Shown here: one piece after another, positions 3 through 63,733 of the stretch | How positions within the stretch are numbered: position 1 is the stretch's first letter | How the letters are laid out: each line of letters begins with the position of its first letter | IMG/VR virus record: IMGVR_UViG_3300000095_000002 | Location: 1,258 to 65,257 of that record | Source of the DNA: a virus | Direction: 5' to 3' (one strand) | Length of the DNA: 64,000 nt | Notes under the pieces: model-generated | What the model was told of the DNA's origin: nothing | The model's database searches: none | The model's input: the letters and a program-made list of their open reading frames with translations, nothing else | Translations under genes and position numbers: made by a program

Positions 3-362
3 ATCCCTGGTTTTATTGCATTAGAACCTAGAGAATATGGGACAGATAAAGAAAGTCGATTAAAAGCTACTATTCCTGCATTTATGTCAGGTAAGATATA
101 TTTTCCTACTAAAGAAACTTGTGAGAAGATAGTTACTCTAAAAGACCAATTAGTAACTTTTCCATTATGTAGGAATGATGATGTAATGGATGCTTTCTGC
201 TATGGAGTTTTATGGTTAGAGAGAAATAGTAGAGTAGTAAGTAGCTCAGAAATACTTCAAGTTCCATCTGAATATATAAAACAAAGAAGGAACATCTTTA
301 TTGATACTCCTTCTCCTAATATATTTGGTTCTACTAATACTTCTACTAGATTTAGATTTTGA
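3..362 (+). CDS. terL: Terminase large subunit, C-terminal nuclease end (partial, runs off the window start)
   Basis: Frame is open from position 3. DKESRL...F.SGKIYFP...QLVTFP..RNDDVMDA matches the Terminase_6C C-terminal motif. Confidence 0.85.
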   Translation: MPGFIALEPREYGTDKESRLKATIPAFMSGKIYFPTKETCEKIVTLKDQLVTFPLCRNDDVMDAFCYGVLWLERNSRVVSSSEILQVPSEYIKQRRNIFIDTPSPNIFGSTNTSTRFRF

Positions 363-367
363 TTAAT

Positions 368-706
368 CTACTTCTTCTCAGGTTCTAAGAATGTATGACC
401 TCTTTTAGCAAATCTCTTTCTAATAGTATCGTTTAATGCAAGCTTAGGTCGAAAATAACCTTTTACATTTAAGAAACTATTATTACCAATATCTCTACGT
501 CTTGTATCAGGTAAAGTCTTAAGCTTAATAACTCCTAGAGGAGTCGTTACTTCATTACCTTCTTCTAGATATTGAATGATAGATTCAAAAATAGAATCAA
601 ATACTTTAGATAATAGAACTTGTGATAGAACAGCTTCAGAGCTTTGTTTTACTTTAGATTGAATGCGAAGTATAAGATCTTTCTTCGCTACTTTAGGAAA
701 TGTCAT
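368..706 (-). CDS. HU/IHF-family DNA-binding protein
   Basis: KKDLI...VFDSIFESIIQYLEEGNEV..PLG...RRRDIGNNSFLNVKGYFRPKL fits the HU fold. Likely start is MTFPK at 706 (ORF track starts at 748). Confidence 0.8.
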   Translation of the reverse strand: MTFPKVAKKDLILRIQSKVKQSSEAVLSQVLLSKVFDSIFESIIQYLEEGNEVTTPLGVIKLKTLPDTRRRDIGNNSFLNVKGYFRPKLALNDTIRKRFAKRGHTFLEPEKK

Positions 707-756
707 GTATGTTATATTGAAACAGTATTGCTTCATTATAATGTACACTTCTATTT

Positions 757-25500: not shown

Positions 25501-28500
25501 TAATAGAAATGAGAACTAGGTCTGGTACTGTAGCTTTAAAGAATAACGTAATTAATAGAGCATTAGTAGCCACTACCGAAGGTTATGGTAAAGCTATCAA
25601 TTCTCTTAAAAATCCTACTCAATCTTTAACTAATATTCAAGATGTTTTAAGAAATAAGTTTATAGACTTAAGAACTGGTATTAGCCAAGTATCTACCGAT
25701 GGAGCTAGAAGTCTAACTGCTTTTTCTACTGTTGCTAAAGCTAAATTCGCTGAAATTGCTATTGGCGCTCAATTATTTGGTGAGGCTATTAAAGGTGCGT
25801 TAATCTCTAGTGGTATTGGATTGATAGTAGCTGCAATAGTAGGTCTTGGAGCTAAGATGATTCAGTTAGTTGGAGATTCTAAGAAACTAGACAATACTTA
25901 TAAAGACTTTAATACTACTCTAGAAGCTTCTGCTACTAAATTTGATAGAGCTAATATCTCATTTGAAAAAGGTTCTCAAGGTATTAGTAAATTCAATGAT
26001 AAGATAGAAAATTCTAAAAAATTATTTGGAGAATTAGAACCTAGCGCATGGGAACAAATTGGAAATACTATTGGTGGAGCAGTTAAAACAATATTTAACT
26101 TTGATAAAGCTGTAGTAAAAACACTTACTAACATTGTCACTTTTGGTCAAGCTTCTAAAGTATTTAAATTCTTTGGAGATGGATTAAAAGCGGTTTGGAA
26201 TAGTTTTTCTGACGCAGACTTTATTAAACGAGCTGAAAAGATGACTCGTATATCAGATTTTATACAAGATTATGAAGTAGCTCTTAGAGGTCAAAATAAA
26301 GAATTAGCAAACGGTAATCTATTAACTGAAACTTCTAACCAAAAGATCAAAGCTAAAATGATCCTTACTGGAGAAGATTTAGAGAGAGAGAAAGGTGCTA
26401 ATAAAGCTCGAATTAATTCTTTCACTGAAATGGTAGATATCCAAAAGAAAGAGTTAGAGGAACTTAAAGGTAAAGGAGATAAATTAACTGATAGAGATAA
26501 AGCTCAGATTAGCATTCTAGAAGCTGAAATCTCAAGAAGAGAGAAAGTAATAGAAGTTAGTAAAAAGCAATTTGATGATCAACTAAAGTATTATGAAGCT
26601 CGTAATCTTCTATTAGATAGAGAGAATAAGTTTAGTAATACACAAGTTTCGTTAGAAGAGATCAAAGGATTACAAGATGAAGTAAATAAATCTCAATCTA
26701 CTTTAAACGCAAATATTAGTTCAGGATTAGATATTTACTCTAGTTCTATTAAAGATTCTCAAGCTAAATCTAAACAATTTTTATCTGATTTGAAAGATGG
26801 AAGTTTAAGTGTTAAAGCTACTCTTAAAGATCTTGGTGGTGAAATTTATAAGGTTGGTGAAGATGGTAAAGTCATTAGTCAACTTCCTGAAGATGTTCTT
26901 AAATCTATTGAAACTACTTTAAAAGGTAAAGAGATAGATGGCAAGAAATATTCTTTAGAACAGGTACTTAACCTTAAAGAAACTAGAGATGCGTTAACCA
27001 AAGCTGGAGTAGAAATTCCTAAAGACTTAAGTGTATTAGCCGATAAAATGAAAGCTAGTTATAAAGCTTCTGAAGGAGAACTTCAATTAATTAATCTAAA
27101 AGAACTAGAAAAAGATTTATCCAACTTCTCTACTTTATCTGATAAATACCAAGAAAAGAAAAGGCAGTTCTTATCGACTACTAAAGATGATATTGGAGCT
27201 ACAACTTTCTCTACCTCAATTAAAAAGTCTTTAAGGTTAGCAGAAACAGATCTACAAGGCTTTCTAAACGCTCTAGATGCGTCTTCTAAAGGTGCAAATA
27301 AGTTCATTACTGCGTCTACCCAAAAGTTTACTAGACAAGCTTTAGAAGGAACGTTAAACCTTACTGAAGGGTTAAAAGAGCTAGGTAAAGTAGAAAGTGA
27401 AATTGAATCAAAACAATTAGAAAAACTTAAAACATCTATCACTGGTAAAAATAAAGATGAGATTTTAGCTGCTCTTAAAGAGATTGGAGTAGAAACTGAG
27501 AAGACGTTAACAGCAGAATCAATTGACTTTAATAAATTTGAAGAAAATATCGGAACTTTTGTTGAAGGGCTAAATGCTGTAGCTGAATCAGGAGAACAAA
27601 GTAATGAAGAAATAGCTAAGAAGTTCGAGTCTTTCTATAATCAAATGAAAGGCAAGGTAACTCCTGCTGCTTACAAAACTTTAACTGAAACTCTTATTGG
27701 TTATGAAAAAGCTGCTAGCGAACAAAGAATAAGTAATATAACTTTGGAAACTAACGCTTTAGAACAACAGAAGAAATATGGTTTAGTGTTAGAAGCTGAT
27801 TATATCAAAGAGATTAACGCTCTTAACATTCAAACTACTGAAGAAAATATAAAAAACAAGCAAGTAGAACTTAAAAGATTACTTTCACTATATAAAGAAT
27901 CAGCTCCTCAAGTAGCAAAAGCTAAAGCTGAATTAGAATCTTTAGAGTTAGACCTTAAAGGTAAGAAATCTAATAATCCTGTAGAAATTGCTCAAGCTGA
28001 GAGTAAAGCTAAATTCGATATTCTTAAGAAAGATTTAGAGTTAGGTAAAGTAACTAGGAGACAATATATAGAAGAAGAACTTAAAGATTCTCAACTTCTA
28101 TATCAAACTCAATTAAGTGAAAAACAAAAGACTTTATCTGAATTAATGAAAGATGAGGTTAAAAATGCTAAAGCTATAAAAGCTCTTAGAAAATCGATGG
28201 AGTCTGATGAAAAAGATTTCAATCTAAATATCTTAGAGATTAATAGGAGAAGAATAGAAGAACAATTTAAAATTCAGACTAATGCTTTAAGCAGAAGAGA
28301 ATTAGAAGCTAGAGAAAACTCTCTCAATGGAAATACTAAAGAAGAATTAGAATCTATTAGAAAACTAGAAACTGATAAGATTAATCTCAATATCAAAACT
28401 TTAGAGTCTAGATTAGCAGTAGAAAAGCAAGGAAGTGAAAAGTTCTTAGAAATAGAGAAACAATTATTAGAAGCTCAATTATCTCTTAGAGAAACTCAAG

Positions 28501-31500
28501 TTAAACAATCTAAAGATAGAACTAATGAGGAAATCGAGAGAAAGAAAAATGAGTTATCTACTATTGCAGCTCTAGAAGAAAGAAATAATCTAAATGGTAC
28601 TACTAACAAAAACTTAGAAAATACTAGACAACTAAGAGAGAAAGAAATTCAATTATCTATTGATTCTATCAACTCTCAAATTGCTTTGACTGAAAAAGGA
28701 AGTAAGGAACGATTAGCTTTAGAGCAACAATTAATCTTAGAAGTTAATAAGTTACAGAAAACTCAGTTAGATAACCAAAAAGAAAGATTAGAACAATCTC
28801 TAGAAGATAGAAGAAAAAAATTAGAAGCTAGACAAATTGATTTAGAAAAGGCTTCTATTAGAGGAACTACTGAACAAGACATTGAAGCTACTAGAAAACT
28901 AAAAGAAGAAGAAATTACTTCTACTATTGAATCTCTCAAACAGAGGTCTTCTCTGTATAAAGAAGGTAGTAAAGAAAGAATTGCTCTTGAACAAGAAATA
29001 GCTAAAGAAACTCTTAAGTTAGATAAACAAGTCTATGAAAATCAAAAGTCTAGATTACAAACTCAAATAGATAATAAGAAGAAAGCTTTTAGAGATACAC
29101 AACTTCAATTAGAGAAGTTAATGGTACTTGGGACTTCTACTGAAGATTCTAAGAAAGTTCGTGCTGCTAAAGAAGAAGAAATTCAAATCACTATTGAAGG
29201 TATCAAGAAAGAAATTAATCTAACTAAAGAAGGAAGCACTCAAAGAAAAGATTTAGAACGTTCATTAAGAGAAGAACTCTTAAAGTTAGACAAACAAAGA
29301 ATAGCTAATAAGAGAGAATTTATAGATGAAGAGATATCTCTAGAAAAAACTAAGATTACTAAAATTCAGTCTTTATTGGAACGTTCAACTATCGGAGGAA
29401 CTTTTGAAAAAGATTTAGAGAAGATTCGTGAGCTAAAAGAAAAAGAAACTCAGATTACTATTAACTCTATTCAAAAACAGTTAGCTACTTATAAGGGAAA
29501 TGCTAAAGAACGTCTTGCTCTAGAAGCTCAATTAACTCAGGAAATTACTAAACTACAAAAGATTCAATTTGGTAATAAAGAAGAGAAACTAAAATCTCAG
29601 TTGGAAGACGCAAAGAACAAGTTAGATAAGCAAATTGCATTAAAAGAGTCTAGCTTAATTAATGGTGCAACAGAACAAGAACTCAAAATAGTAGAAGAAG
29701 CAAAGATAAAAGAAACTCAATTTACTATTGATTCTATCAGGAAGCAGATAAATCTCTATAAAGTTGGTAGTAAAGAACGTCTTGCTCTAGAAGCTAATTT
29801 ACAGAGAGAAATCAATAATCTTAGAAAACAAACATTAGATAAAGAGAAGAACTTAATTCAAAATACTCTAGAGTTTAAGAAAACTAAGATTGATATTACA
29901 AATATCGAGTTAGAAAAGAAACTTCTTAGAGGAGATATTGATAGAGAAAGTTTTGAAGATAAGTTAACTGCTTCATCTCAGAAAGTTAATCTCTTACAAC
30001 AAGACGCATTTACCAAGCAACTTAAACTATATCAAAAAGGTAGTAAAGAATATTTAGAGATACTCAAAAATTTATCTCAATTACAAGTTGATTATCAAAA
30101 ATCTGTAGTAGATAAAGCTATTAGAAATATTGATAGAATTACTAAATCTCAGAATAATTCGATAGAAGCACAAAAAATCTCTATTACTAATCAACTAAGT
30201 TCTAGTGATTCACTTACTAAAGAAATTCAAGAGCAAATTAAACTTGAAGATTCTAGAAGTTCTGTAATTAAAGCTACCTCAGATTATCAAGTAGGACTAT
30301 TAGAGTTAACTAAAAGATCTACAGGAGATATTGAGAAGAGAGCTGAGATTGATGTACAAATTGCTGAACTAAAACAAAAAGCTCTATTAGAAAGTCAAGA
30401 GATTGAGATTAATAGTATAGAGAACAATGCGTTAATTAATGAAGCTGCTTTAGAAAGAGAGAAAATTCAAATATCTCTCAATAGATTGGAGTTAGACAGA
30501 AATAAAATTCAGACTGAAGCAGAACTAAGAAAAGCTAGATTGAATAAGTTAGATTCTGAGTCTATTAATGCACTTCAATTACAGTTAGACTCTATTAACA
30601 ATCAATATGACGCTCTTGGTAGAAGTGAGAACTTAATCTCTACTCAAATAGCTAATCAAGCTGAGATTAGTAGAAATCAGTTAAAAGTAATTAAACAGCA
30701 ACAAGATTTAGCTCAAAAGAATTCTGCGTTAGACGTAGAGCAAGCTAAGCAAAACGTTATTATCGCAGGTTACGAAAAGCAGTTATCTCAACTAAAAGCT
30801 AAAGGTGATTTAATACAAGCTAACGTAAATAAAGAGAAAGTTATAGGAGATTTATTAACTAAAGCTTATGACGCTCAAATTGCGTTACTAAATAGTAGAA
30901 AAGAATTGATGGACTCAACTTTAAGTTCTATTGATTCTCTATATAGTATTGAACAATCAATGGCGAAATCCGACTTAACTAAAGATAAATTAGCTAAAGA
31001 ACAAGCTAAAGATAAACTGACTTATCTAGAATTTCAACAAAAAGTTGAGAATGAAAGCTTCAATCTAGAAAAAGCTAAAAATAAGATAGTTAGAGAAAGA
31101 CAAAAAGTTGAATTAACAATCGCAGAGTTAAATGCTAAACAAGCTCTTGCAATGTCTAAAGCTGAAGAAGCTAGAACTAATGCTCGTAAAGATGCTACTA
31201 ATGAAGAGAAGTTAGCAGCTAAATTAGCAGTAGAAGCAGCAGAACAAGGTATTATTGCAGCTAAAGCTAATAGGGACATTAATCTAGAACTTATAAAAGT
31301 AGAAGAACAATCAGAAAAGAACAAAGAAGTAATTAATGCTCGTAATCAAAGAAATCAAAGACTACAAGCTGAACAATCTCTTGCATCTTTAACTTCTAAT
31401 ACTACTGATGATAGAGAAGTAAAAGGAAAAGCACAAGAGTATAGAGAACTTGATGAGAGAAGTATTAGTAATACATTAAAATCTACTTCTAACTTAAATA

Positions 31501-32255
31501 TAGAGAATATTCTTAAAGAGTTCACTAATAATATGAATAACAGAAAACCTATAGAAGATATTAAAGTCTCTAATATAAGTGATGTACCTAAAACTTCTCC
31601 TATATCTTCTGCTCCTGGCTTTAGTAATAGTAGAGGAAATATTAACTCTAGAGATACTAAAAACAATGATAAAAGTAAGAAAGATAATAAAGATAATGTA
31701 TTTACCTCTATCACTAATCTAAGTAAATCTATAGATAAAGCAGAAAAGTCTATTACTAAAAAATTAGGACTAGATACTCAATCACTTATTAAAACATCTA
31801 ACACAAATAGTAAAACTCTTAATAAACTCATAGAAGTTAGTGTAAAGAGTATAAGTAAGAGTATAACTACTGCTACTAACACTATTACTGGTACAACTCT
31901 TAAAGGTGGTAAAGTAATAGAACCTCCTAAGCCAAAGAAAGGAGAAATTGTACCTGACTCACTTAGAACTATTAGAGAAGCTGTTACTAACTTCAAGTTA
32001 TCTGTAGATAAATCTAATGTAGAGAAGAAAAAAGAAGCTGATATTAGATATAAAGAAGAACAAAAAGATAATGATAAATTACAGAAATCTATTGAACTTC
32101 TAATAGATAAGATTGAAGAACATATAGAAAAAGGTGGAAATACTACTATTAACTCTCCAATTAATGTAACTGGTGGAGGAGATAAAAATGTAGGTTTAGA
32201 TATTAATACTCACCTATATAACTTAGCTACTAAAGTACAAAGGAGACAAAAATAG
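22599..32255 (+). CDS. Tail tape measure protein (3218 aa)
   Basis: TP901-like N-terminal core (FEQKLNEV...AAYQAASAG), hydrophobic segments, long coiled coil, canonical position. Confidence 0.92.
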   Translation: MDTASNIKFNVEGDDKFSQFLEKTQTSLKNLNEKSLKFFNENLKDVTKNLRGKQSAVEKLVGEYSNMTKSSEGLATSTAKLGKSVTLLGAAFGALNNISIAQSVFKTIGKGFSGILDSIAMTNTGINAMAASGFDGTPLMNSFNEIGAVLSGNQEAIDNFTARATGAFNQFEQKLNEVNIIFGLSQERLSEYGQALQDGLEKNLKNSVSSLTALEAAYQAASAGFTEFQENQKVVELAVKTNKAAPGSNLYSVGGAIGKTSGILGTKDIAELELVAAKAVKAEADGMATLAEMNDYLPDMYSSLKNAGIGVSDLVDQTQGLVVAFTKLGAKVPEITTQMEAFSRNTISKTPEAQKALEGLVDAQGKAITLNQQYFKEKGIVQGIQDFAEAVGYNTEKIKAVYNETNSFAFAMKVLAQNGKLARDSIQGISEVTSDSLTNAFDTATSSSQAKMAQITQSYDEIMISFGRAFQERSKEGVNSIEWYKEVLVTFKEPLINLAKSSVTFFDNLNKVTGVLGSVAKMVAGIAGTILSFRAFNLVLGGITNGFKDLRKESGIIQDLYKSKTGLLSIGKQVLGIDQQHLLNQDRINKAIKNSTSLETALKENIDKTSSSRLSSLVGVRQEIDSIVQRDKAVVASQKNIEKLQEKVNQKKEVSTKGQQDITATENRISTLSNIQEKARAALIDDKENVARFKRLNELEVKEAAIRQRNLGNLELGSLAQINREKLKLQNSYTTTTLRKVQELENQKTALINKAELTRDDKQKVRSLVREQNALKREDRDKDRTPLTSDAKTKLQETQANVTQKLREEELILDSQREKQAVTNNKLVQESTKLEAAKAQQLERTNRLTRTTTELLTLQQDLNQKKNSLDRVNSAVATQQERFYQTQNALRREEANLNKIRNKDSAEYQKQLAVVQQLQTKEATLQESLNRAKNIQAESQRKFNQTDFDTRRKLIQLTRDQGLADGSLIEMRTRSGTVALKNNVINRALVATTEGYGKAINSLKNPTQSLTNIQDVLRNKFIDLRTGISQVSTDGARSLTAFSTVAKAKFAEIAIGAQLFGEAIKGALISSGIGLIVAAIVGLGAKMIQLVGDSKKLDNTYKDFNTTLEASATKFDRANISFEKGSQGISKFNDKIENSKKLFGELEPSAWEQIGNTIGGAVKTIFNFDKAVVKTLTNIVTFGQASKVFKFFGDGLKAVWNSFSDADFIKRAEKMTRISDFIQDYEVALRGQNKELANGNLLTETSNQKIKAKMILTGEDLEREKGANKARINSFTEMVDIQKKELEELKGKGDKLTDRDKAQISILEAEISRREKVIEVSKKQFDDQLKYYEARNLLLDRENKFSNTQVSLEEIKGLQDEVNKSQSTLNANISSGLDIYSSSIKDSQAKSKQFLSDLKDGSLSVKATLKDLGGEIYKVGEDGKVISQLPEDVLKSIETTLKGKEIDGKKYSLEQVLNLKETRDALTKAGVEIPKDLSVLADKMKASYKASEGELQLINLKELEKDLSNFSTLSDKYQEKKRQFLSTTKDDIGATTFSTSIKKSLRLAETDLQGFLNALDASSKGANKFITASTQKFTRQALEGTLNLTEGLKELGKVESEIESKQLEKLKTSITGKNKDEILAALKEIGVETEKTLTAESIDFNKFEENIGTFVEGLNAVAESGEQSNEEIAKKFESFYNQMKGKVTPAAYKTLTETLIGYEKAASEQRISNITLETNALEQQKKYGLVLEADYIKEINALNIQTTEENIKNKQVELKRLLSLYKESAPQVAKAKAELESLELDLKGKKSNNPVEIAQAESKAKFDILKKDLELGKVTRRQYIEEELKDSQLLYQTQLSEKQKTLSELMKDEVKNAKAIKALRKSMESDEKDFNLNILEINRRRIEEQFKIQTNALSRRELEARENSLNGNTKEELESIRKLETDKINLNIKTLESRLAVEKQGSEKFLEIEKQLLEAQLSLRETQVKQSKDRTNEEIERKKNELSTIAALEERNNLNGTTNKNLENTRQLREKEIQLSIDSINSQIALTEKGSKERLALEQQLILEVNKLQKTQLDNQKERLEQSLEDRRKKLEARQIDLEKASIRGTTEQDIEATRKLKEEEITSTIESLKQRSSLYKEGSKERIALEQEIAKETLKLDKQVYENQKSRLQTQIDNKKKAFRDTQLQLEKLMVLGTSTEDSKKVRAAKEEEIQITIEGIKKEINLTKEGSTQRKDLERSLREELLKLDKQRIANKREFIDEEISLEKTKITKIQSLLERSTIGGTFEKDLEKIRELKEKETQITINSIQKQLATYKGNAKERLALEAQLTQEITKLQKIQFGNKEEKLKSQLEDAKNKLDKQIALKESSLINGATEQELKIVEEAKIKETQFTIDSIRKQINLYKVGSKERLALEANLQREINNLRKQTLDKEKNLIQNTLEFKKTKIDITNIELEKKLLRGDIDRESFEDKLTASSQKVNLLQQDAFTKQLKLYQKGSKEYLEILKNLSQLQVDYQKSVVDKAIRNIDRITKSQNNSIEAQKISITNQLSSSDSLTKEIQEQIKLEDSRSSVIKATSDYQVGLLELTKRSTGDIEKRAEIDVQIAELKQKALLESQEIEINSIENNALINEAALEREKIQISLNRLELDRNKIQTEAELRKARLNKLDSESINALQLQLDSINNQYDALGRSENLISTQIANQAEISRNQLKVIKQQQDLAQKNSALDVEQAKQNVIIAGYEKQLSQLKAKGDLIQANVNKEKVIGDLLTKAYDAQIALLNSRKELMDSTLSSIDSLYSIEQSMAKSDLTKDKLAKEQAKDKLTYLEFQQKVENESFNLEKAKNKIVRERQKVELTIAELNAKQALAMSKAEEARTNARKDATNEEKLAAKLAVEAAEQGIIAAKANRDINLELIKVEEQSEKNKEVINARNQRNQRLQAEQSLASLTSNTTDDREVKGKAQEYRELDERSISNTLKSTSNLNIENILKEFTNNMNNRKPIEDIKVSNISDVPKTSPISSAPGFSNSRGNINSRDTKNNDKSKKDNKDNVFTSITNLSKSIDKAEKSITKKLGLDTQSLIKTSNTNSKTLNKLIEVSVKSISKSITTATNTITGTTLKGGKVIEPPKPKKGEIVPDSLRTIREAVTNFKLSVDKSNVEKKKEADIRYKEEQKDNDKLQKSIELLIDKIEEHIEKGGNTTINSPINVTGGGDKNVGLDINTHLYNLATKVQRRQK
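28230..30110 (+). repeat. 89-aa (267-bp) tandem repeat, about 7 copies, within the tape measure gene
   Basis: A GSKERLALE-type motif starts at 28431, 28698, 28965, 29232, 29499, 29766 and 30039. Outer boundaries are approximate. Confidence 0.85.
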
Positions 32256-51973: not shown

Positions 51974-52369
51974 TTATTTCTTCCTAATAATTTCTGGATC
52001 TTCTGACTCTTCGTATCTACTAAATCCTAAGAAGTCACCTGAATCATGACTAAGGTATGGGTCTATCCAATCTACGAAGTTCTCTATCTCATTAGAATAA
52101 TTTTTTAAATTACAACGGATACATAGAAAATATTGTTCTGCTATATCATCAAATCTTAGAGTAGAAACAGTATCAGCAGCAAAATAGTAACTATCACAAG
52201 TTAACATTCCATACCACCTCTGACTATTAGTAAATAAAGGATGAAGAGGTATATTAATTTCTTCATACTCTCTATCGTGATAAATCATATCTTTTAGCAG
52301 ATTAATGATTTTCTGTGGGATATCTTTGCGTAATATAGCATTGAAATGAAATTCAGTGTACATTCCCAT
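51974..52369 (-). CDS. Hypothetical phage protein
   Basis: MGMYTE...NLKNYSNEIENFVDWIDPY. Confidence 0.65.
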   Translation of the reverse strand: MGMYTEFHFNAILRKDIPQKIINLLKDMIYHDREYEEINIPLHPLFTNSQRWYGMLTCDSYYFAADTVSTLRFDDIAEQYFLCIRCNLKNYSNEIENFVDWIDPYLSHDSGDFLGFSRYEESEDPEIIRKK

Positions 52370-52373
52370 AGTT

Positions 52374-52607
52374 CTAATTCTCCAATATGTAGATAGTTAA
52401 GTCTTCTAATACGTCTGTAAAATTACCAGAAAATAACACTTTATCTTTTTTCTTAATTTCATAAGTAGTTTCTAATAATTTATCTGATCTTACTACTTTT
52501 GCATTTATTTTATTTGCTAGTGTTTCTAATGTTTGTTCTGGATATTCAGCACTATAAGCAACGTAATCTACTAGAAATCGAATTACTTCACGTTTAGATT
52601 TTTTCAT
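52374..52607 (-). CDS. Hypothetical protein
   Basis: Clean ORF in the - strand operon. Confidence 0.55.
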   Translation of the reverse strand: MKKSKREVIRFLVDYVAYSAEYPEQTLETLANKINAKVVRSDKLLETTYEIKKKDKVLFSGNFTDVLEDLTIYILEN

Positions 52608-52673
52608 AGTAAGTAGTAGTCTCCTCTAGTTAATGTTAAACTTTTGAATAGATATAAATAATTATTAATACTA

Positions 52674-53969
52674 ATGAACCCAAACTTTCAAGAAGCTTTA
52701 TATACAACAAATCATTCCTCTAAAATTTCTAGACTTTCTCAAAATGTAGTACAAGAAATTAGTAGAGATGACCCTAATTCTCTTACTGAATATCTTAAAA
52801 TGTTACATTCCGATCCTGTAGTAAAAGCTTGTGTAGACATCAAATGTCTAAGAGCTTCTAATACTTTCGGGATTTATCAGCATACTAAACCTGAAATTAC
52901 AGATTTTATGCAAGGAATGTTCGCTAATATGCGAGATACATTGAAAAAAAATGTAGGTGAACTAGCAATATGTACTGCATTGGGTTTCTCTGTAGCTGAA
53001 ATCAACTTTAAGATTGATAAGTCATATCTTGTGTTAGATAGTATTTATGCACTTAACTTAGAAAGAGTAAAGTTTAAAGGTAGTCGAGGATTTATTGAAT
53101 ACGTCATTTACTCAGATAATAAGAATACCAATATAGAAATCCCATATAAAAAAATCATTCATATTACTAACTCATCTTCTACTACTTTTAATGACCCGTT
53201 TGGAAGTGCAGAATGTAAAAGAGCTTATAAATATTCTCAAGCTAAAATGGCAATTCTCTCTGATATGGTACTTTCAGGTAGAAACTTAGCAACTGGAATT
53301 TTAGTAGGCAAGGTAGATAGTAATATTAGCACTGTAATGATAGATATGTACGGTAATCCATTAATCGGAGCTAACGGTCAACCTGTTAAGAAGGGCGCTC
53401 ATCAAGCTCTATATGAAAAGTTAATTGCTTTAGAAAATCATTCAGTGTTAGTGACAGATAAAGCTAATGATATTATGCCAATCTCAGTACCAGATGGAAG
53501 TCAGTTCTGGATTAATGCACTTCGACAATTAGACCAATATATAATGAGAAGTTTCGGTGTACCTTCCTTAATATTTGAAGAAGGTTCTGGAGCTTTAGGT
53601 GTCGCTACATTATCTGTTAAACAATCAACTCTTCTAGACGCAACAGTAGAAGTCATTGTAAATCAAATCCAAGACCAGATTATAGAGAAAGTCTGCAAAC
53701 CTATTATCTTATGGAACTTCGGTAAACAGAAAGATTATGGTAAGTTCGCTATTGATTCTAGTTCTGATCCAGGAGTTGAAATGCAACAACTTCAAAATAT
53801 ATTTACTGCTATATCGATGGGAATCTTTAGTGCAGATGACCCAGTAGTGAGCAATAGAATTAGAGGTGTACTTAATCTTCCAATTCAAACAGAGAAAGAG
53901 ATTGAAGAAGCTAAAGCTCTAAAACAAATAGAACAACAAAGCCAAATGCAACAATCTCCTCCAATCTAA
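52674..53969 (+). CDS. Portal protein (Mu gp29/DUF935-like)
   Basis: MLHSDPVVKACV...ALGFSVAEI...KIIH...DPFGSAECKRAY...LDQYIMRS...QIIEKVCKPIILWNFG, 431 aa. Confidence 0.85.
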   Translation: MNPNFQEALYTTNHSSKISRLSQNVVQEISRDDPNSLTEYLKMLHSDPVVKACVDIKCLRASNTFGIYQHTKPEITDFMQGMFANMRDTLKKNVGELAICTALGFSVAEINFKIDKSYLVLDSIYALNLERVKFKGSRGFIEYVIYSDNKNTNIEIPYKKIIHITNSSSTTFNDPFGSAECKRAYKYSQAKMAILSDMVLSGRNLATGILVGKVDSNISTVMIDMYGNPLIGANGQPVKKGAHQALYEKLIALENHSVLVTDKANDIMPISVPDGSQFWINALRQLDQYIMRSFGVPSLIFEEGSGALGVATLSVKQSTLLDATVEVIVNQIQDQIIEKVCKPIILWNFGKQKDYGKFAIDSSSDPGVEMQQLQNIFTAISMGIFSADDPVVSNRIRGVLNLPIQTEKEIEEAKALKQIEQQSQMQQSPPI

Positions 53970-54224
53970 TTAATAGATAGCAGGTAAAAGTTCAACTATT
54001 GTACCTTTATAATAGAGATTAAAATCTTCTTGATAACCTCCATCCTCTCGATAATGTTCTTCTACATAAACTCCCCAATTACCATAAAATTTAATAAAAG
54101 AGTCATTATCTAATCTAATATCTTTCTTAAAATTCTCTATGACAGTTTCTAAATATGCTATAGAAATATCTGTCTTTATCTCAAGAATTCTTTGGAAATC
54201 AGAACTAATAAATATTACTCTCAT
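53970..54224 (-). CDS. Hypothetical protein
   Basis: Clean ORF with a GGAGG RBS upstream. Confidence 0.6.
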   Translation of the reverse strand: MRVIFISSDFQRILEIKTDISIAYLETVIENFKKDIRLDNDSFIKFYGNWGVYVEEHYREDGGYQEDFNLYYKGTIVELLPAIY

Positions 54225-54356
54225 TTTCTTCCTCCAATAGTTCTTCTAACCAAGACTTAACTTCTTCTTTACTAAGTTCATCTAGAAACTCTCTAGCACT
54301 AGAAAATTTAGAGAGTTTAGATTCAGGGGGTATTATGATAATTTCTCTTCTTCTAT

Positions 54357-54887
54357 CTATTCTTTATAGAGTTTAGCTTTTAATATTCTAAGAGCCATTG
54401 CCTCGTTATCCTGCTTAGTTTGTTCTTCTTTACATTGAACTTTGATATTAGTAGGCTTATGTATTACTTCTACTACTTCTTCACCCATTCCTATATCTGG
54501 AAAAGAAAGTCTAAAACATTTCCTAGATACTTCTCTAGGCTTAAACTCAAAATCATCAGGAGCTTCTGGATAAATCTTTATATCTAGCATTACACTTTGA
54601 TAAGCTACTACTTTAGTTAAATCTTTCTTATCAAATACTGGAATTCTAGTTTTTCGTTGTCTACCTTCTTGTTCTTTAAATTTACTAGAAGCATCTTCTT
54701 CTATAATCTCCAACATTAAATATTCAAAACCATTACCATAGGTATTCCATCTTTCACTTACTATCTTTATTTTTCCTTCTCTATCTTTAACTTCTTGAGA
54801 ATACTGAATATATAAATCATTAATCCAAGCATAAGTTTCTTCGCAATGATTAATTGGATTGAATTCTACAAATATAATTTCCATCAT
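54357..54887 (-). CDS. Class I peptide release factor-like protein lacking GGQ
   Basis: GRQRKTRIPVF...IYPE..DDFEF.P...VIHKPTNIKVQC...N...ALRILKAKLY is colinear with RF2 domains 2-3. Confidence 0.7.
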   Translation of the reverse strand: MMEIIFVEFNPINHCEETYAWINDLYIQYSQEVKDREGKIKIVSERWNTYGNGFEYLMLEIIEEDASSKFKEQEGRQRKTRIPVFDKKDLTKVVAYQSVMLDIKIYPEAPDDFEFKPREVSRKCFRLSFPDIGMGEEVVEVIHKPTNIKVQCKEEQTKQDNEAMALRILKAKLYKE

Positions 54888-54895
54888 TTCTTCTA

Positions 54896-55123
54896 CTAGA
54901 TATATTTAGCCCAACTGTTCATTTCATCATCCAAGAACCAATCAAGTTCCTCTAATAAAGTAGTATCTTCTTCAGATATACTCATTATTTCTGAGTAAGT
55001 ATACCCGAAATATAGTTTATCTTCTACTATATCAATAAAGCATCTAGGTTCATAGCTTAAAAGAATTCTCATACCTTCTAATACTTGAAAGGTAGAATTC
55101 ATTTTTACATCTTCTATAATCAC
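54896..55123 (-). CDS. Small acidic hypothetical protein
   Basis: ISEEDTTLLEELDWF resembles segments of 55133 and 57800. Confidence 0.6.
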   Translation of the reverse strand: MIIEDVKMNSTFQVLEGMRILLSYEPRCFIDIVEDKLYFGYTYSEIMSISEEDTTLLEELDWFLDDEMNSWAKYI

Positions 55124-55132
55124 TTATGTCAT

Positions 55133-55402
55133 TTAATAGTCTCTATTAGATAAATACCAACCATACTGATACTTCCAAAAGAAAGTAGTAATAGAATCCC
55201 CTACCTTACTAAACTCCCATCCCCATTCTTTTAAATCTTTCTTATCTTGTTCACCTATCTCTTTATCATCAGTATATAAGAGATAATACTCCCCTACACC
55301 TTCACAATGTAAATGAAGATTTGGATAATATCTTAGTAGAATTGAGAATCCTCTTAATAAACATTCAGTATCAAAATTTTGAGGTTGAGATATTTGTATC
55401 AT
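55133..55402 (-). CDS. Small hypothetical protein
   Basis: GFSILLRY...DKKDLKEWGW, with a GGAG RBS. Confidence 0.6.
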   Translation of the reverse strand: MIQISQPQNFDTECLLRGFSILLRYYPNLHLHCEGVGEYYLLYTDDKEIGEQDKKDLKEWGWEFSKVGDSITTFFWKYQYGWYLSNRDY

Positions 55403-55419
55403 ATTAACTCCTATAAAAA

Positions 55420-55519
55420 TGTCCTACTCACGAATCGAACGTGAATACTACCTCACATAAGAGGCTGCTCTGATCCAAAGGACTGTGTTTATCAGATCTT
55501 CCCATTGAGCTAGTAGGAC
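55420..55519 (-). ncRNA. tRNA-like RNA with a D-loop insertion and a 6-nt anticodon loop
   Basis: GTCCTAC/GTAGGAC acceptor, GCTC/GAGC D-stem with a 36-nt loop, GCCTC-TTATGT-GAGGT, and TCACG-TTCGATT-CGTGA T arm. Confidence 0.75.
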
Positions 55520-55530
55520 TTACAAGCTAA

Positions 55531-55713
55531 TTAATCTTTTGTATCCTCACTATTTTTATTCTTTTTCTCTTCCTCTTTACGTTTTTCGTAATCACTTATG
55601 TGTTCTCCAGTCCACGACTCATATAGTTCTTCTCTAATTAAAAGACCTCCAGCTACACAAGCAGCATTATAAGCAATAAAAAATCCAGTACCAATTATAC
55701 TCATAGGTTCCAT
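55531..55713 (-). CDS. Small membrane protein
   Basis: N-terminal hydrophobic helix, charged tail, GAGG RBS. Confidence 0.55.
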   Translation of the reverse strand: MEPMSIIGTGFFIAYNAACVAGGLLIREELYESWTGEHISDYEKRKEEEKKNKNSEDTKD

Positions 55714-55744
55714 AATCTTTTTACCTCTAGTTTTAAGTTAGTTC

Positions 55745-56452
55745 CTATTCTACCCATCCCAAAGCTTTAGAAATTACTGGAAACTGTTCTTTAAAAATAT
55801 CTTGTATAGCTAATGCAATTTCTCTATGTTCTTTTTGTACACCTTCTCCTAAAGCTCGTACTTGCAAGTAATGAATCCAATTTCTAAGATTATTTTTCAT
55901 ATATAGTCTAGTAGACATTGTGGTTGGTAGAATAAATCGTACACATTCTTTTGCATAACCTAGTTCTAATCCTTCTTGATATAACGCTAACCCTGACTGA
56001 AGATGTTCTTTGACACATTCTAAATAATTTCTATCTTTTTCATTTGCGTCTTCTCCAATTATTAGTTCTTCGGGTGAAACTAATCCTACAAATCCGAAAC
56101 TATTCTGACGATTTTTAGTATCTTGCAATCTAAACTCAATTGGTTCTAAGGATTCTACTTTCGCGTATCTAGCAGAAAACTCTTGAAATGTAGCACTTCT
56201 GTGTCTAAGAATTTGTGCTGAAATAGCTTTAGAAGTTGTAATCTCAACAGTCATATCTACTTGTTCAAAAATAGACCAATGTTGCTTTTTGATGCAGTAA
56301 TTAAGTAACTTATCCGCAGTATCTAAATTGCTTTGATTTTGTGGATTAGATACTCTAGCTACATAAACTACATATTCTTCAGGAGTTAGTCTTTTAGAGT
56401 CAATTTCAACAATAGGTTGAGTAATTGAAGTCAATTTAACTTGAGTAGTCAT
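55745..56452 (-). CDS. thyX: FAD-dependent thymidylate synthase
   Basis: HWSIFEQ, QILRHRSATFQEFSARY, AKECVRFILP, NLRNWIHY. Confidence 0.95.
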   Translation of the reverse strand: MTTQVKLTSITQPIVEIDSKRLTPEEYVVYVARVSNPQNQSNLDTADKLLNYCIKKQHWSIFEQVDMTVEITTSKAISAQILRHRSATFQEFSARYAKVESLEPIEFRLQDTKNRQNSFGFVGLVSPEELIIGEDANEKDRNYLECVKEHLQSGLALYQEGLELGYAKECVRFILPTTMSTRLYMKNNLRNWIHYLQVRALGEGVQKEHREIALAIQDIFKEQFPVISKALGWVE

Positions 56453-56510
56453 ATTTTTATTTCCTGTGAGTTATTTTGAACTAGAAAGTGTAAGTTGTTA
56501 AGAGATTTTA

Positions 56511-57137
56511 TTATTGGTCATACATTAGTTCCTCTACTCTTTCGTAACAATCATCGTAATATTTAGCTTCTCTTTCATCCAACTCTCTTAACTCTTTTTG
56601 TCTATATCTAGGTAATTCATCATTATCAAAATTAACTTCATCACTGTAAAGACCCTCCAAGTGTTCCCATAAGTCAAGAATTACTCTATCTTTCTCATTT
56701 TCTCTATATAAAAGCTCCTTAAATCTAGGAAACTCTTTCTTATACATTTTATAGAGCTTAAGGTTATTATCAATGCTAAACTCTGTATTTACAATTCTAT
56801 CGGCTAATTTAATAGTTAAAGCTGCATAGTTCTCTCTAGTTTTTGGAGCTGTCTTCTCAAGTATCTCTTTTCTATTTTTACCTGATTCATTGGTTAAATC
56901 AAATACTATATCTGCTACTTCACTACCAAATACGGATTTAAGAAGCTCGTAAGTAACAGGAGTATCTTCTAATGAATCATGTAACCAAGCACCGGAAAGT
57001 ACAATACCATCTATAACACCAAACTCTTGTAAAGTTAGAATTACTTCTTCAAGATGTTTTGTATAAGGTAACTCTCCATAAAACTGATTTTTATGTATTA
57101 ATCGTGCAAATAACTCAGCTTGTTCAACTAATAGCAT
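56511..57137 (-). CDS. HD-domain phosphohydrolase, RelA/SpoT (Mesh1/SAH)-like
   Basis: H..Q...PY..HL..V...AWLHDSLEDT...FG.EVA..V..LT...IKLADRI.N. Confidence 0.85.
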   Translation of the reverse strand: MLLVEQAELFARLIHKNQFYGELPYTKHLEEVILTLQEFGVIDGIVLSGAWLHDSLEDTPVTYELLKSVFGSEVADIVFDLTNESGKNRKEILEKTAPKTRENYAALTIKLADRIVNTEFSIDNNLKLYKMYKKEFPRFKELLYRENEKDRVILDLWEHLEGLYSDEVNFDNDELPRYRQKELRELDEREAKYYDDCYERVEELMYDQ

Positions 57138-57151
57138 AATTGTCTTTCACT

Positions 57152-57445
57152 TTAAGGTAAAGAATTTAAATCAAATAAAAGAGAATCTAACTTTACTTTT
57201 GTGTCTTCAATTTGCCATCGTAAATATTCTCTAAATTTCTTCAGAAAGTTATCTACCTCTTGCCTCATTCGACTCATTGTAGTCTCTTCACTATATTCAT
57301 AAATTGTTTTATTGTAATAATGATGATTAGTCCACCAAATATATTTATCGAACTTTTTATGATAAATAGTACCAACATATACGGGTTCATCTTTCTCTGT
57401 ATAACAAGCGGTTAAGTAGAATCCTTTATAATTCTCTCTTATCAT
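57152..57445 (-). CDS. Hypothetical protein
   Basis: Clean ORF with an ATGA overlap. Confidence 0.6.
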   Translation of the reverse strand: MIRENYKGFYLTACYTEKDEPVYVGTIYHKKFDKYIWWTNHHYYNKTIYEYSEETTMSRMRQEVDNFLKKFREYLRWQIEDTKVKLDSLLFDLNSLP

Positions 57446-57807
57446 ATACTTTCTTTACTCATCCAATTGAGACAATTAATAATTATATCTCCATGACATT
57501 TCTCATCTTCTTTACACCAACAAACTAATTTTAATGGTTCATGTCCTAATTCTTCCCTAAATCTAATATCCGCTAATAACCAATCAAGTGTTTCTTTAGC
57601 TTCAGTATTAGCTTTAATTTGTTCCCACAACCATCTTCTATATTTCTGTACTACTTCTTCTCTTGTACCGTCCTTACCAATTTTATAAGGATTAGCTAAT
57701 GTAGATTGAGGTAAACCAGTATATTTACTACCACGACCAATATAAAAACAATCTTTGTCAAACTCTATATTTTTTATGCAAACTCTTTTTACATTTAACT
57801 TATTCAT
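57442..57807 (-). CDS. DUF4326-family protein
   Basis: YIGRGS...LANPYKIGKDGTREEVVQKY...LVCWC....CHGDII. Confidence 0.85.
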   Translation of the reverse strand: MNKLNVKRVCIKNIEFDKDCFYIGRGSKYTGLPQSTLANPYKIGKDGTREEVVQKYRRWLWEQIKANTEAKETLDWLLADIRFREELGHEPLKLVCWCKEDEKCHGDIIINCLNWMSKESI

Positions 57808-57997
57808 TAATTTTATATATCCATTGATACTCTAGTTCTTCCCAACCTAAAGATTCTAAATACTCTATATCTTCTGGTGTCTCACTATTTATAGGAAACT
57901 TTACATAAAAAGTGTCTTGATAATAACTTAGTTTAATTTCAGAACGTTTTTCTAATAGTTTCAATAAACCATTTACTATATTTTCATATCTAGTCAT
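57800..57997 (-). CDS. Small hypothetical protein
   Basis: EDIEYLESLGW resembles segments of 54896 and 55133. Confidence 0.55.
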   Translation of the reverse strand: MTRYENIVNGLLKLLEKRSEIKLSYYQDTFYVKFPINSETPEDIEYLESLGWEELEYQWIYKINE

Positions 57998-58611: not shown

Positions 58612-58795
58612 AATAAGTAGATAAAGCTTGAAGTATTAAATCCGCATTATCTAGTAACCAAATTACTGCATCTTTATTTTTACTTATATACAAGTCATTA
58701 TTATCTTCTGTGGTTTGTCCAAACTCATATACTCTTTCTTCTACATTAGGGAATTCAGCAAGTAGTCTATCTAAATCTTTCCAACTTATACTCAT
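58583..58795 (-). CDS. Hypothetical protein
   Basis: Clean ORF overlapping its neighbours. Confidence 0.55.
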   Translation of the reverse strand: MSISWKDLDRLLAEFPNVEERVYEFGQTTEDNNDLYISKNKDAVIWLLDNADLILQALSTYCEDERPNDE

Positions 58796-61630: not shown

Positions 61631-63733
61631 TTATTTTGTTACTACTTTAAAAATTCTAGTGCTTCCATTACTCTCTACTTTAGCATAGAAAGTCGGATTA
61701 CTAGAGAGTGAGAAACCCAATCCACTTAGCTGTTCTTGTCCATCATCTTCTACCTCTAGTTTATGAGTTAACATTTCAAACACTCTCTTATGGTTTCTAT
61801 ACAAATCATCTTTTAGAAACTCATTGAAGAATCCATTCGCTTTGGGATTTCTACATTTATCTAAGATAAAGAATAAATGCTTATTACCAATCTCTAAACC
61901 ATCCCAATGATTAGGAGAGTAGAGAATCATATTTACTTTCTGGAATTTATTAGTATCAATCTCCCATATCTTAGTAGACTGTACTTGAGAAGTCTTAGGT
62001 TCTGTGGGAAATACTACTCCAAACTTTTTAGTATAGGTGAAATTAGCAATGTAGACATATTCACCTTGTCGTATAATTCCTTGAGAATCGAACGTATAAA
62101 CTTCATCATTGAATTCTACTTCTACTGTGTAATTCTGGGTAATAGCACGATTAGTATAGTTATGTACTCTAATCATATACTTACCCTCTATGAGATTAGA
62201 ATCGTGAGAGTAAATAATATTTTCTACAGGTTCTAAAGTAGTAGGATGGATATTCATGTCAATGTCTAAATGACCCCCTGTTTTCCTAGAACGTTTATTG
62301 CCGTAATAAATTGTTTCTCCCCCTGTTATTTTTGGTTCAATTACATGAAGGTCAAGGTCTGTATAATTGTCCCAAGCTAGTGAAATACGTAACTTACCGT
62401 CTATCTTTCCACCTGCTTTTTTAACTTTCTCTTTAATCGAATCTGCTACTCCATTGTTATAACTCCAGGAAAGATGACACCCTTCTCCTTCCTCCCATTT
62501 AAATAAAGAAGGAGCTTCAGAGTTAACAGCAGTAACAAGACTTACTAAGTTATTCTCCTTACTCTTCTCAAATAAGATAGAGATTGAATCTGCTCTAGGT
62601 ACTTCATCATTTAAGAACTTATCTAAAGTAATCTCCTGTACATTCTTCAAGCTTTTAGGACTAACTGGAATTTCTTCTTTTAACTTATTGAAGAGAACCT
62701 TAGTTTTGTTTTCAGAATTAGCAATAGTTCTAGAATCTCCACGATTGAGATATATTGTATTATTGACCTTAACATCGGTATAATTAGCAAACCTACGAGC
62801 TAAAGAATCTTCATAACCTAACTCGATGACAGTTTGAAGTGCGTCATCCACCATTCTTTGAGTCGGAGCCACCTTAACACGTTTATAGTTATTGGGGTCT
62901 ACTACCGAACCATACTTATTAACCGCTGTCTCTATATCAGTATCATTACTTAAATCGATTAACAATGTGCCAATAGCAGAATTTCTAACTCTTGCTCCTA
63001 ACTTTTGACAATTAACCCAAGCAAAATTATCTTTTCTCTGCTCCAAAACTACACTAATACTATTCTCAGCTACTAATCTTCTATACTCATCTTGAAGTTT
63101 TTGGAATGATTTAACAGCAGCAATAAATTCACTGCCACGATATAAATTACCGTCTTTCTCTAAATCAATTACTGACTGAACTGCATAAGGAGTAATTTCA
63201 TCCAAAGCTCTTTTAAAGACATTCTTAGTATCTCTATAAGTAGCTTGTGTAGGAACAATATCTTTCTCAGCATTTACCTTTTGATATTCTTCTTTATTTA
63301 AGTGATAGTAGAAATGATCCCACCTAATTATCTCAGTAGTTATATTATTGACTTTTAAAGTTTCAAAATTAAAATCAGTTCCTAGCTTAGGTTGATTAGA
63401 TACAAAGACATCTCGAATATTAGAGCGAAATACTAATTCACTCAGATTATCTACTACTCTCTGATACATTTCATCTGGAACTTCAAAATTCCAAAGAGTA
63501 GTCATCATCATATTTTCAGGGTTTATCTTAACTAATCCACCATAAGATTTAATAAACTGACGACAAGAATTACAATTGAAGCTTTGACGTATATCTTCAG
63601 GAAAAGAATTGATATAAGTATCCCACAACTCATCTTTACTTACATCACTAATAAAAATAACTCCTTTATCTACAGAAGACATTAACTTAGTAACATGAGC
63701 TTGGAAGATAGACTTAAATTGATTAAACAACAT
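61631..63733 (-). CDS. Large phage protein with a CxxC motif and a YfaP/DUF2135-like domain
   Basis: NCNSCRQFI and LRISLAWDNYTDLDLHVIEP...LDIDMN...VENI. The start is set at MLFNQ because the GTG at 63790 lies within a terminator. Confidence 0.7.
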   Translation of the reverse strand: MLFNQFKSIFQAHVTKLMSSVDKGVIFISDVSKDELWDTYINSFPEDIRQSFNCNSCRQFIKSYGGLVKINPENMMMTTLWNFEVPDEMYQRVVDNLSELVFRSNIRDVFVSNQPKLGTDFNFETLKVNNITTEIIRWDHFYYHLNKEEYQKVNAEKDIVPTQATYRDTKNVFKRALDEITPYAVQSVIDLEKDGNLYRGSEFIAAVKSFQKLQDEYRRLVAENSISVVLEQRKDNFAWVNCQKLGARVRNSAIGTLLIDLSNDTDIETAVNKYGSVVDPNNYKRVKVAPTQRMVDDALQTVIELGYEDSLARRFANYTDVKVNNTIYLNRGDSRTIANSENKTKVLFNKLKEEIPVSPKSLKNVQEITLDKFLNDEVPRADSISILFEKSKENNLVSLVTAVNSEAPSLFKWEEGEGCHLSWSYNNGVADSIKEKVKKAGGKIDGKLRISLAWDNYTDLDLHVIEPKITGGETIYYGNKRSRKTGGHLDIDMNIHPTTLEPVENIIYSHDSNLIEGKYMIRVHNYTNRAITQNYTVEVEFNDEVYTFDSQGIIRQGEYVYIANFTYTKKFGVVFPTEPKTSQVQSTKIWEIDTNKFQKVNMILYSPNHWDGLEIGNKHLFFILDKCRNPKANGFFNEFLKDDLYRNHKRVFEMLTHKLEVEDDGQEQLSGLGFSLSSNPTFYAKVESNGSTRIFKVVTK

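Follow-up and report, generated by a model that had tools for sequence, protein, structure and literature searches.

What use could a virus have for a release factor (RF) that has lost both the loop needed for peptidyl-tRNA hydrolysis and the residues that contact the stop codon? The question is raised by a gene on the minus strand (54357..54887) of a 64,000-nucleotide (nt) stretch of viral DNA, here called the window, which covers positions 1,258 to 65,257 of the IMG/VR record IMGVR_UViG_3300000095_000002. This gene is a complete coding sequence, recognised from the list of open reading frames (ORFs) and by homology to RFs, and its 176-amino-acid (aa) product is derived from a release factor. 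To our knowledge, release factors are universal, nearly all of their known paralogs keep the catalytic Gly-Gly-Gln (GGQ) motif, and non-catalytic derivatives are rare, with plant PrfB3 and, by analogy, Dom34 as the examples. Such derivatives have shed light on the sensing and regulation of the ribosome. The protein described here is an old offshoot of the bacterial class-I RFs, made of domain 2 and the first half of domain 3 and encoded by an intact phage gene. Together with its four full-length relatives, it very probably represents a conserved RF derivative that neither catalyses nor decodes.

A truncated class-I release-factor derivative

The ORF opens with two consecutive ATG codons and runs for 176 codons to a TAG stop at 54357..54359. 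Its Shine-Dalgarno sequence is weak, and its start lies 8 nt past the stop codon of a 75-aa ORF. Residues 1-108 (54564..54887, minus strand) are the equivalent of RF domain 2, the PCRF part, as judged from the translation, the PCRF match and structural superposition, and they comprise five strands and two helices. Residues 109-176 (54360..54563, minus strand) correspond to the conserved linker between the domains (YPE..DFE) followed by the first half of domain 3, as delimited by the RF-1 match, the limit of the prfA match and the secondary structure of the model. This half domain consists of the sheet and the start of helix alpha7, the C-terminal end of the protein falling in the middle of the helix.

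Judged by sequence comparison, the likeness to release factors is far beyond chance. A phmmer search against the PDB sequences returned 43 distinct matches at E<=10, of which 41 are class-I RFs and two are Fab chains (E 0.42 and 0.72). The best match is Thermotoga maritima RF1 (2fvo/1rq0, E 8e-11), residues 6-175 of the query being aligned with 89-256 of the chain, while the RF2 chains come at about 3e-7 to 2e-6. The Pfam profiles score just under their gathering thresholds: RF-1 (PF00472) reaches 31.4 bits against 35 (E 2e-7; residues 138-175 on profile positions 33-71 of 116), and PCRF (PF03462) 20.8 bits against 24 (E 3.8e-4; residues 8-89 on positions 105-185 of 194). In a six-frame search, RF-1 scores 34.9 bits (35.4 with neighbours), with an alignment that runs through the TAG codon, and precomputed Pfam tags assign PF00472 to P0001, a protein identical to the 176-aa product. 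The NCBIfam prfA model (TIGR00019) gives 62.9 bits (E 2.4e-17) over positions 114-282 of 361, and 63.1 bits over positions 114-289 in the six-frame search; the score of the protein is far from the curated full-length cut-off of 423.25 bits. The prfB model (TIGR00020) gives 42.6 bits, under its cut-off of 370 bits. As prfA outscores prfB in all five family members described below, RF1 would be slightly nearer than RF2, although only the profile scores lean this way. The first-pass annotation, made from the letters of the window, had described the protein as colinear with domains 2-3 of RF2 in particular; the colinearity with release factors holds, as do the RF-like motifs quoted from the translation, but the assignment to RF2 does not. 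Among the PHROGs, the protein matches phrog_19918, whose function is unknown (E 3.5e-12).

How much of a release factor is missing? Of the usual four-domain architecture (domain 1, the domain 2/4 superdomain and domain 3), only domain 2 and one half of domain 3 are left. Domain 1 is absent because the protein begins at the first strand of domain 2. At the other end, prfA positions of about 290-361 are unmatched and the protein stops about 18 residues into helix alpha7, so that the C-terminal half of this helix, the switch loop and domain 4 are all absent. Domain 1 had thus rightly been reported as missing at first reading, but the extent of the loss was understated. Past the TAG stop, the profile searches continue into seven in-frame codons (IEEEKLS, followed by TAA; 54333..54356, minus strand), up to prfA position 289, and these codons are probably left over from helix alpha7 of the ancestor. 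Read-through of the TAG was considered as a route to a longer protein and discarded, the gain being only 7 residues. The idea that the gene is split, its missing domains lying at another locus, was also discarded, as no second RF-1, PCRF or prfA match was found in the 65,257-bp record, itself partial (21% complete according to CheckV).

The structural predictions agree with this description. The AlphaFold2 model built from 60 sequences has a mean predicted local distance difference test (pLDDT) of 93.8 and a predicted template modelling score (pTM) of 0.86. A model built from the five family sequences alone keeps the same secondary structure (pLDDT 84.4, pTM 0.79), and residues 130-133 are its only segment of at least three residues with a pLDDT below 50. 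The ESM Atlas's own model of the protein has a pTM of 0.84 and a template modelling (TM) score of 0.81 to an RF1-family cluster. Foldseek searches of the PDB gave 55 matches at E<=0.001, the best 50 of the 55 being release-factor chains without exception (E down to 2.5e-12). The match depends on the conformation of the target: compact RFs are matched with a query TM score (TMq) of 0.76-0.84 and a root-mean-square deviation (rmsd) of 2.4-3.1, against 0.49-0.55 and 10.7-16.7 for open, ribosome-bound RFs. The same split is obtained with the family-only model (both models together: TMq 0.70-0.84 versus 0.43-0.55). In VIA-align, the whole model superposes on nine compact RFs with Z 15.2-17.3 and an rmsd of 2.0-2.9 Angstrom over 152-169 residues; these nine are the free RF1/RF2 structures 1rq0, 1zbt, 1gqe and 2ihr, the PrmC-bound RF1 2b3t, and the ribosome-bound pre-accommodated factors 6orl, 6ost, 5mdw and 5mdy. 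On open, accommodated RFs it is mostly residues 1-110 alone, i.e., domain 2, that superpose (Z 10-14, about 100 residues). The fold of RF domains 2 and 3 is therefore found by VIA-align, by Foldseek and with the family-only model, and the structural match to release factors that had been proposed as a check of the first-pass annotation turned out to be strong. The protein is predicted to adopt the compact ("closed") RF shape. A search of BFVD gave no match at E<=0.001; its weak matches, over 58-70 columns, relate domain 3 of the model to small phage proteins with an RF-1 domain. Prediction of a homodimer returned "no answer" (score 0.00, mark 0.42).

Catalytic and decoding sites across the family

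The protein belongs to a very small family. A word-index search yielded three proteins at E<=0.001 among 22 candidates: that of the window, P0002 (178 aa, 69% identical) and P0003 (183 aa, 60% identical). An exhaustive search of 1.84 billion representatives brought 204 proteins at E<=0.001, of which only three lie at E<=1e-10, namely P0002, P0004 (183 aa) and P0005 (172 aa); the next match after the family is an ordinary 344-aa RF (2e-9). The exhaustive search also supplied two fragments (P0013 and P0117), and P0153 (192 aa) differs from P0004, of which it is a variant, in its C-terminal tail. The five full-length members, that of the window included, are 172-183 aa long and about 41-69% identical, with 48 invariant columns. 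Each of them starts with strand 1 of domain 2 and stops at a common point within helix alpha7. The first-pass annotation had asked whether the loss of GGQ is conserved in homologs or whether the gene is a recently decayed pseudogene: since four further full-length relatives share the truncated architecture and none has GGQ, this is not a recent pseudogene.

Further searches added little. Scans of viral contigs for relatives found none, and a megablast of 52000-58000 against phage records gave no match, while tblastn of the protein against the phage records pointed to 14 unannotated records at 22-26% identity. The sole match in the scan of genome contigs is a Planctomycetota metagenome-assembled genome (29% identity). 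The only match among metagenome contigs was set aside, its ORFs showing it to be an ordinary bacterial RF2 with SPF and GGQ.

In a maximum-likelihood tree (60 rows, 170 columns, quick search), the family forms a separate long branch with a stem of 2.52 substitutions per column and a Shimodaira-Hasegawa-like approximate likelihood-ratio test (SH-aLRT) value of 100. This branch lies outside both the group with the RF1 tripeptide PxT (SH-aLRT 93) and that with the RF2 tripeptide SPF (88), and is nested in neither; PxT is present in 50 of the 55 non-family rows of the alignment. One of these rows, P0037 from the library of representatives, is itself a curiosity: this full-length RF1-like protein of 362 aa has YRGFPRLN in place of GGQ and SPFTE at the tripeptide, and it is placed inside the PxT clade on a long branch.

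The catalytic loop is gone from the whole family. In the phmmer alignment, FRLSFPD---IGMGEEVVEVIHKPT stands against the GGQ segment of RF1, the motif having disappeared with a deletion of three residues. Where canonical factors read SGxGGQxVN, the 176-aa protein reads LSFPDIGMGE (L127-E136; 54480..54509, minus strand), a remnant delimited from the translation, the alignments and the low pLDDT. In the 60-row alignment, GGQ occurs in none of the five members, as against 54 of the 55 other rows, which bears out across the family the loss first noticed in the window. The corresponding loops (SFPD-IGMGE, DGW-CIDAD, PFPDI-EE, ADRNMRVAHED and, in P0005, AGRDQRGAHY) are the most variable stretch of the family, shortened in three members and full-length but substituted in the other two. 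P0005 keeps a Gln at the column of the GGQ glutamine (RDQ). Because GGQ is absent from every family member, no peptidyl-tRNA hydrolysis is possible.

The decoding site has fared no better. At the position of the "tripeptide anticodon", PxT in RF1 and SPF in RF2, the protein carries P83-V84-F85 (54633..54641, minus strand), as read from the translation and the 60-row alignment; in the alignment with the PDB RF1, RIPVFDKK stands opposite RVPVTESG. PVF is neither PxT nor SPF, and the loop that follows is 5-6 residues longer than the canonical one in four of the five members and lacks the His-Thr pair. According to PMC3974865, RF1 contacts the stop codon through Gly116, Glu119, Gln181, Thr186, His193 and Thr194 (Thermus thermophilus numbering). 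Across the family, the Gly116 column reads H/H/H/H/R, that of Glu119 E/G/D/D/S, that of Gln181 T/I/S/T/gap and that of Thr186 F/F/F/F/G, while the His193-Thr194 pair falls in the remodelled loop. Only the protein of the window retains Glu119. The stop-recognition motif, which had been called no longer intact, is thus altered at its contact columns in all members.

The positions that have been lost are the functional ones. A conservation scan was restricted to the 48 columns within the query span that are at least 85% conserved among 54 canonical RFs, P0037 being left out since it has no GGQ itself. All five members keep 13 of these 48 columns (E8, L25, Y29, G75, R78, P83, P107, H143, P145, C152, N161, A165 and L169), and the protein of the window keeps 19. 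The columns of the GGQ loop and of decoding are lost in all or nearly all members; they fall in GG-E at the tip of helix alpha5, in the strand H-RVQ-P-TE, in the loop GR-HTS and all along G-GGQ-VN...SA-R. What is retained is the hydrophobic and structural core of both domains, the inter-domain linker and a basic face at the start of alpha7, where R167, K170 and K172 are invariant in the family. Another basic position is kept next to the tripeptide: the column of Escherichia coli Arg186 reads R/R/K/K/K, and mutation of this Arg slowed the association of RF1 with the ribosome more than the other mutations, with a 14-fold cut in rate, as described in PMC3974865. Many of the invariant residues are specific to the family and not shared with canonical RFs: EVKD at 32-35, SE at 44-45, FKE.EG.QR at 70-78 and YPE...DFE at 106-114. 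Without the catalytic loop, the decoding residues and the reach to the peptidyl-transferase centre, the 176-aa protein is unable to act as a canonical release factor.

Known systems and genomic neighbourhood

Does the protein fit any known class of RF paralog? Its closest relatives are RF1 (prfA; 1rq0, 1zbt, 2b3t and 6orl), with RF2 (prfB; 1gqe, 2ihr and 5mdw) close behind. It shares with them homology and colinearity from domain 2 to the middle of domain 3, as well as the compact fold; unlike them, it is deprived of domain 1, the second half of alpha7, the switch loop, domain 4, GGQ and the decoding residues. A precedent for such losses is plant PrfB3, rightly invoked by the first-pass annotation: according to PMC5897788, this RF2-derived protein has lost SPF and GGQ, and it binds the 3' untranslated region (UTR) of petB and stabilises the petB mRNA. 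The likeness is limited to the shared loss of the catalytic and codon-recognition motifs, since PrfB3 is a nuclear-encoded chloroplast protein of land plants, whereas the phage protein derives from RFs independently and has been shortened at either end.

PMC6514570 describes PrfH as a short RF paralog in which domain 1 is missing and the codon-recognition domain is altered. In an ESM-Atlas feature search, PrfH clusters come first at 0.82, which is a lead only, and the PrfH structures 7sa4, 9mor and 9mq4 are matched with Z 10.7-11.5. However, PrfH keeps GGQ and works with RtcB, while the phage protein has no GGQ. The PrfH model (TIGR03072) gives 14 bits with the protein of the window and 16-20 bits with its four relatives, versus a cut-off of 166.65 bits; at E<=0.01 it does not match the protein of the window at all. 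No RtcB match was found in the partial 65-kb record either, and a PrfH-type repair module was rejected on these three grounds. Rescue factors of the ArfB/ICT1 type consist of a GGQ domain followed by a basic C-terminal tail, with no domain 2. Such an identity was also rejected, because domain 2 is present here, GGQ is absent and the protein ends within alpha7. The phage protein therefore stands outside RF1, RF2, PrfH and ArfB, whose defining features it does not possess.

Two other comparisons are more distant. Dom34/Pelota and the baeRF-1 families have lost the catalytic Gln, their catalytic loop is unconstrained, and they are thought to occupy the A site without hydrolysis (PMC6514570). They belong to the archaeo-eukaryotic RF superfamily, whose fold is non-homologous, so that their likeness to the phage protein is an analogy only. 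The stop-codon-recoded phages Lak, Agate and Jade are described as encoding full-length RF1 or RF2 that serve a code change, beside suppressor tRNAs (10.1101/2021.08.26.457843), whereas the phage considered here reads well in the standard code and its protein is truncated and motif-less. A literature search for phage GGQ-less release factors found no paper describing one. The word "phage" does not occur in the main text of the survey of RF evolution PMC6514570, whose supplementary family lists might hold the family.

The window, from an uncultured phage, has a GC content of about 30% and is densely filled with ORFs under the standard code (table 11). Within 57 ORFs, the stop codons are 39 TAA, 11 TAG and 7 TGA; this count leaves out 5 of the 62 ORFs (5'-open 3..362, 368..748, antisense 27083..27442, 31355..31714, 61907..62236). 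ARAGORN called no tRNA. A role of the gene in serving a changed genetic code was ruled out by the dense table 11 ORFs, the use of all three stops and the absence of a called tRNA.

The RF-like gene lies in a minus-strand block of early and accessory genes. In order, this block comprises a 719-aa protein (phrog_1735), a 147-aa protein of unknown function (phrog_2018), a dUTPase, a helix-turn-helix protein, a YAcAr/SLOG protein (58792-59241, minus strand), Dam, a DUF4326 protein (57442-57807, minus strand), an HD_4-type HD hydrolase (56511-57137, minus strand; E 4.7e-6, just under the cut-off), ThyX, a 60-aa ORF, a tRNA-shaped RNA, an 89-aa ORF (55133-55402, minus strand), the 75-aa ORF that adjoins the RF-like gene upstream (54896-55123, minus strand), the RF-like gene itself and an 84-aa ORF, after which the block meets a plus-strand Mu-type portal gene. 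HD_4, DUF4326 and YAcAr/SLOG are families described in connection with nucleotide signalling and counter-defence. A weak paralogy links the 75-aa ORF to the 89-aa ORF (BLASTP E 2e-4), and neither matches a Pfam, PHROG or PADLOC family. PADLOC gave no match for the RF-like protein or its neighbours, on which ground kinship with a defence system was rejected.

The tRNA-shaped RNA is located two genes upstream of the RF-like gene (55420-55519, minus strand). Its acceptor stem comprises 7 bp and its anticodon loop 6 nt; the T arm is perfect, with a TTCGATT loop, and the D region is long. RNAfold predicts a cloverleaf-like structure at -33.4 kcal/mol (z -3.06). ARAGORN does not call it, and Rfam returns nothing at E<=1.

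The neighbourhood is also found in two public DNA runs (X1 and X2; labels biocrust metagenome and soil metagenome), which contain relatives of the flanks at about 85-95% identity and related contigs covering the tRNA-shaped RNA; among the runs listed, none was of RNA. No alignable copy of the body of the RF-like gene occurs in the contigs of these two runs, of which the uncovered parts prove nothing. In a 2085-bp contig of X1 (record 1), both flanks align at about 88%, and the gene body (54389-54863, 473 nt) is replaced by 350 letters unalignable at 80%; these letters represent either another insert altogether or an allele that is shorter and far more divergent. In record 7 of X2, the 75-aa ORF appears to be skipped (joint 54883 to 55129), so that the 89-aa ORF abuts the start of the RF-like gene, although the joint is weak, one of its sides having only 32 letters at 80% likeness.

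Some features of the record stand apart from this locus. The major capsid protein is nearest to those of the Pseudanabaena phages Pam2 and PA-SR01 (30.6% identity). The record, 65,257 bp long and 21% complete according to CheckV, yet holds capsid, portal and early genes; the Pseudanabaena phages with the nearest capsid measure 137-143 kb, and the full genome could be considerably longer than the record. A single plus-strand ORF of 3218 aa (22599-32255) has no PHROG match at E<=1e-5.

Possible roles of the protein

The first-pass annotation had proposed an A-site blocker, a decoy for PrmC or RF-targeting toxins, a recoding modulator or an RNA-binding factor; these four roles are guesses between which the computed results do not discriminate. 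With catalysis lost, we infer that the protein works through binding. Our leading guess, put forward tentatively, is that its target is the ribosome and that it acts as a non-catalytic A-site binder. It would dock on the host ribosome at the A site, on the side of the decoding centre, where the compact pre-accommodated RF docks. As its catalytic loop could not swing into the peptidyl-transferase centre, it would compete there with host RF1 and RF2 or with rescue factors, and termination would be tuned or stalled during infection. Catalytically dead proteins of RF type are known or proposed at the A site, as in the Dom34 and baeRF-1 families (PMC6514570). The basic residues retained at the Arg186 column and at R167, K170 and K172 support such a model.

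Several points weigh against it. The loss of domain 4 and of the switch loop, parts that help a canonical RF to settle in the decoding centre, weakens the simple idea of an "A-site blocker", and with the codon-contact residues missing as well, any binding to the A site would have to be of a new kind. The compact pose may simply reflect the training of AlphaFold on compact RF crystal structures; it is therefore a prediction and not evidence of a "locked" state. The use of all three stop codons and the lack of a called tRNA leave no apparent recoding that the protein might serve. With 5 full-length clusters among 1.84 billion representatives, the family is extremely rare, and the replacement of the gene body in X1 means that the RF-like slot varies among close relatives. 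Finally, net charge is not conserved (pI 5.3, 6.8, 6.1, 9.2 and 5.6), so there is no sign of a strongly selected RNA-binding surface.

If not the ribosome, what could the protein bind? One possible, if doubtful, answer is that the RF scaffold has been repurposed for a function off the ribosome, binding RNA, as PrfB3 does with the petB 3' UTR, or a phage or host protein. A precedent exists in PrfB3, an RF without SPF and GGQ that has become an RNA-stabilising factor (PMC5897788). The many family-specific invariant charged residues suggest a new surface, a stem branch as long as 2.52 substitutions per column would agree with a shift in function, and the tRNA-shaped RNA lies two genes away. Yet the protein has no RNA-binding signature, its pI is variable and often acidic, and there is no sign of any partner. 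It is unlikely that the protein instead serves as a decoy or sponge for a factor that binds free compact RFs, for instance PrmC, or a toxin or defence factor of the host that acts on RFs, its surface of domains 2 and 3, devoid of the substrate glutamine, titrating that partner. The whole model does superpose on the PrmC-bound RF1 (2b3t_B, Z 17.1, 169 residues, TMq 0.83), and the contacts of PrmC in 2b3t presumably involve domains 2 and 3 in their compact arrangement, parts that are retained here. The location of the gene among accessory genes of counter-defence type speaks for the same idea, whereas the lack of PADLOC matches speaks against it, and we know of no toxin that targets release factors. 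A decoy should preserve the surface by which it is recognised, and in this family the loop targeted by PrmC is the least conserved stretch and varies in length; this unconstrained loop counts against a PrmC decoy.

The remaining explanations concern whether the gene is active at all, or still active in the old way. A captured fragment of host prfA or prfB, non-functional and in decay, could account for the truncation at both ends, the loss of both functional motifs and the seven-codon alpha7 relic past the stop; the weak Shine-Dalgarno sequence and the gene body that is unalignable in one relative would also fit. Against this stand the five members, about 41-69% identical, with open frames of 172-183 aa, the same ends and 48 invariant columns, as well as the confidently folded models and a very long branch from canonical RFs along which the core residues have nevertheless been kept. 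Conserved frames, ends and core residues together with folded models are unlike a decaying fragment, and this explanation is very improbable. Even less credible, to the point of being nearly dismissed, is a still-active release or rescue factor with a non-GGQ catalytic loop. The Gln that P0005 has at the glutamine column is in its favour, but that Gln is absent from the other four members, three of which have a shortened loop; the glycines are absent from all five, and the loop is the least conserved region of the family. Moreover, with the switch loop and the remainder of alpha7 missing, no route is known by which domain 3 could reach the peptidyl-transferase centre.

The tentative reading of the protein as a ribosome binder can be given a more precise form, which we consider improbable. 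The protein might be a "locked-compact" pseudo release factor that docks in the A site in the pre-accommodation pose, never opens, and blocks host RF1 and RF2 or rescue factors, leading to read-through, stalling or translation shut-off. It might even act together with the tRNA-shaped RNA.

The family is tiny, being limited to five clusters. Its compact core of domains 2 and 3, in which both active sites have been erased, would be a natural "separation-of-function" release factor. Binding to PrmC or some other partner would uncover a process of the host that phages have to neutralise. Binding to the ribosome could make visible which features a pre-accommodated RF recognises when no codon is read, and would represent a new way for phages to control termination or rescue. 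Should the less probable "locked-compact" form of this reading prove true, it would be a sign of a class of viral termination modulators that has not been described so far.

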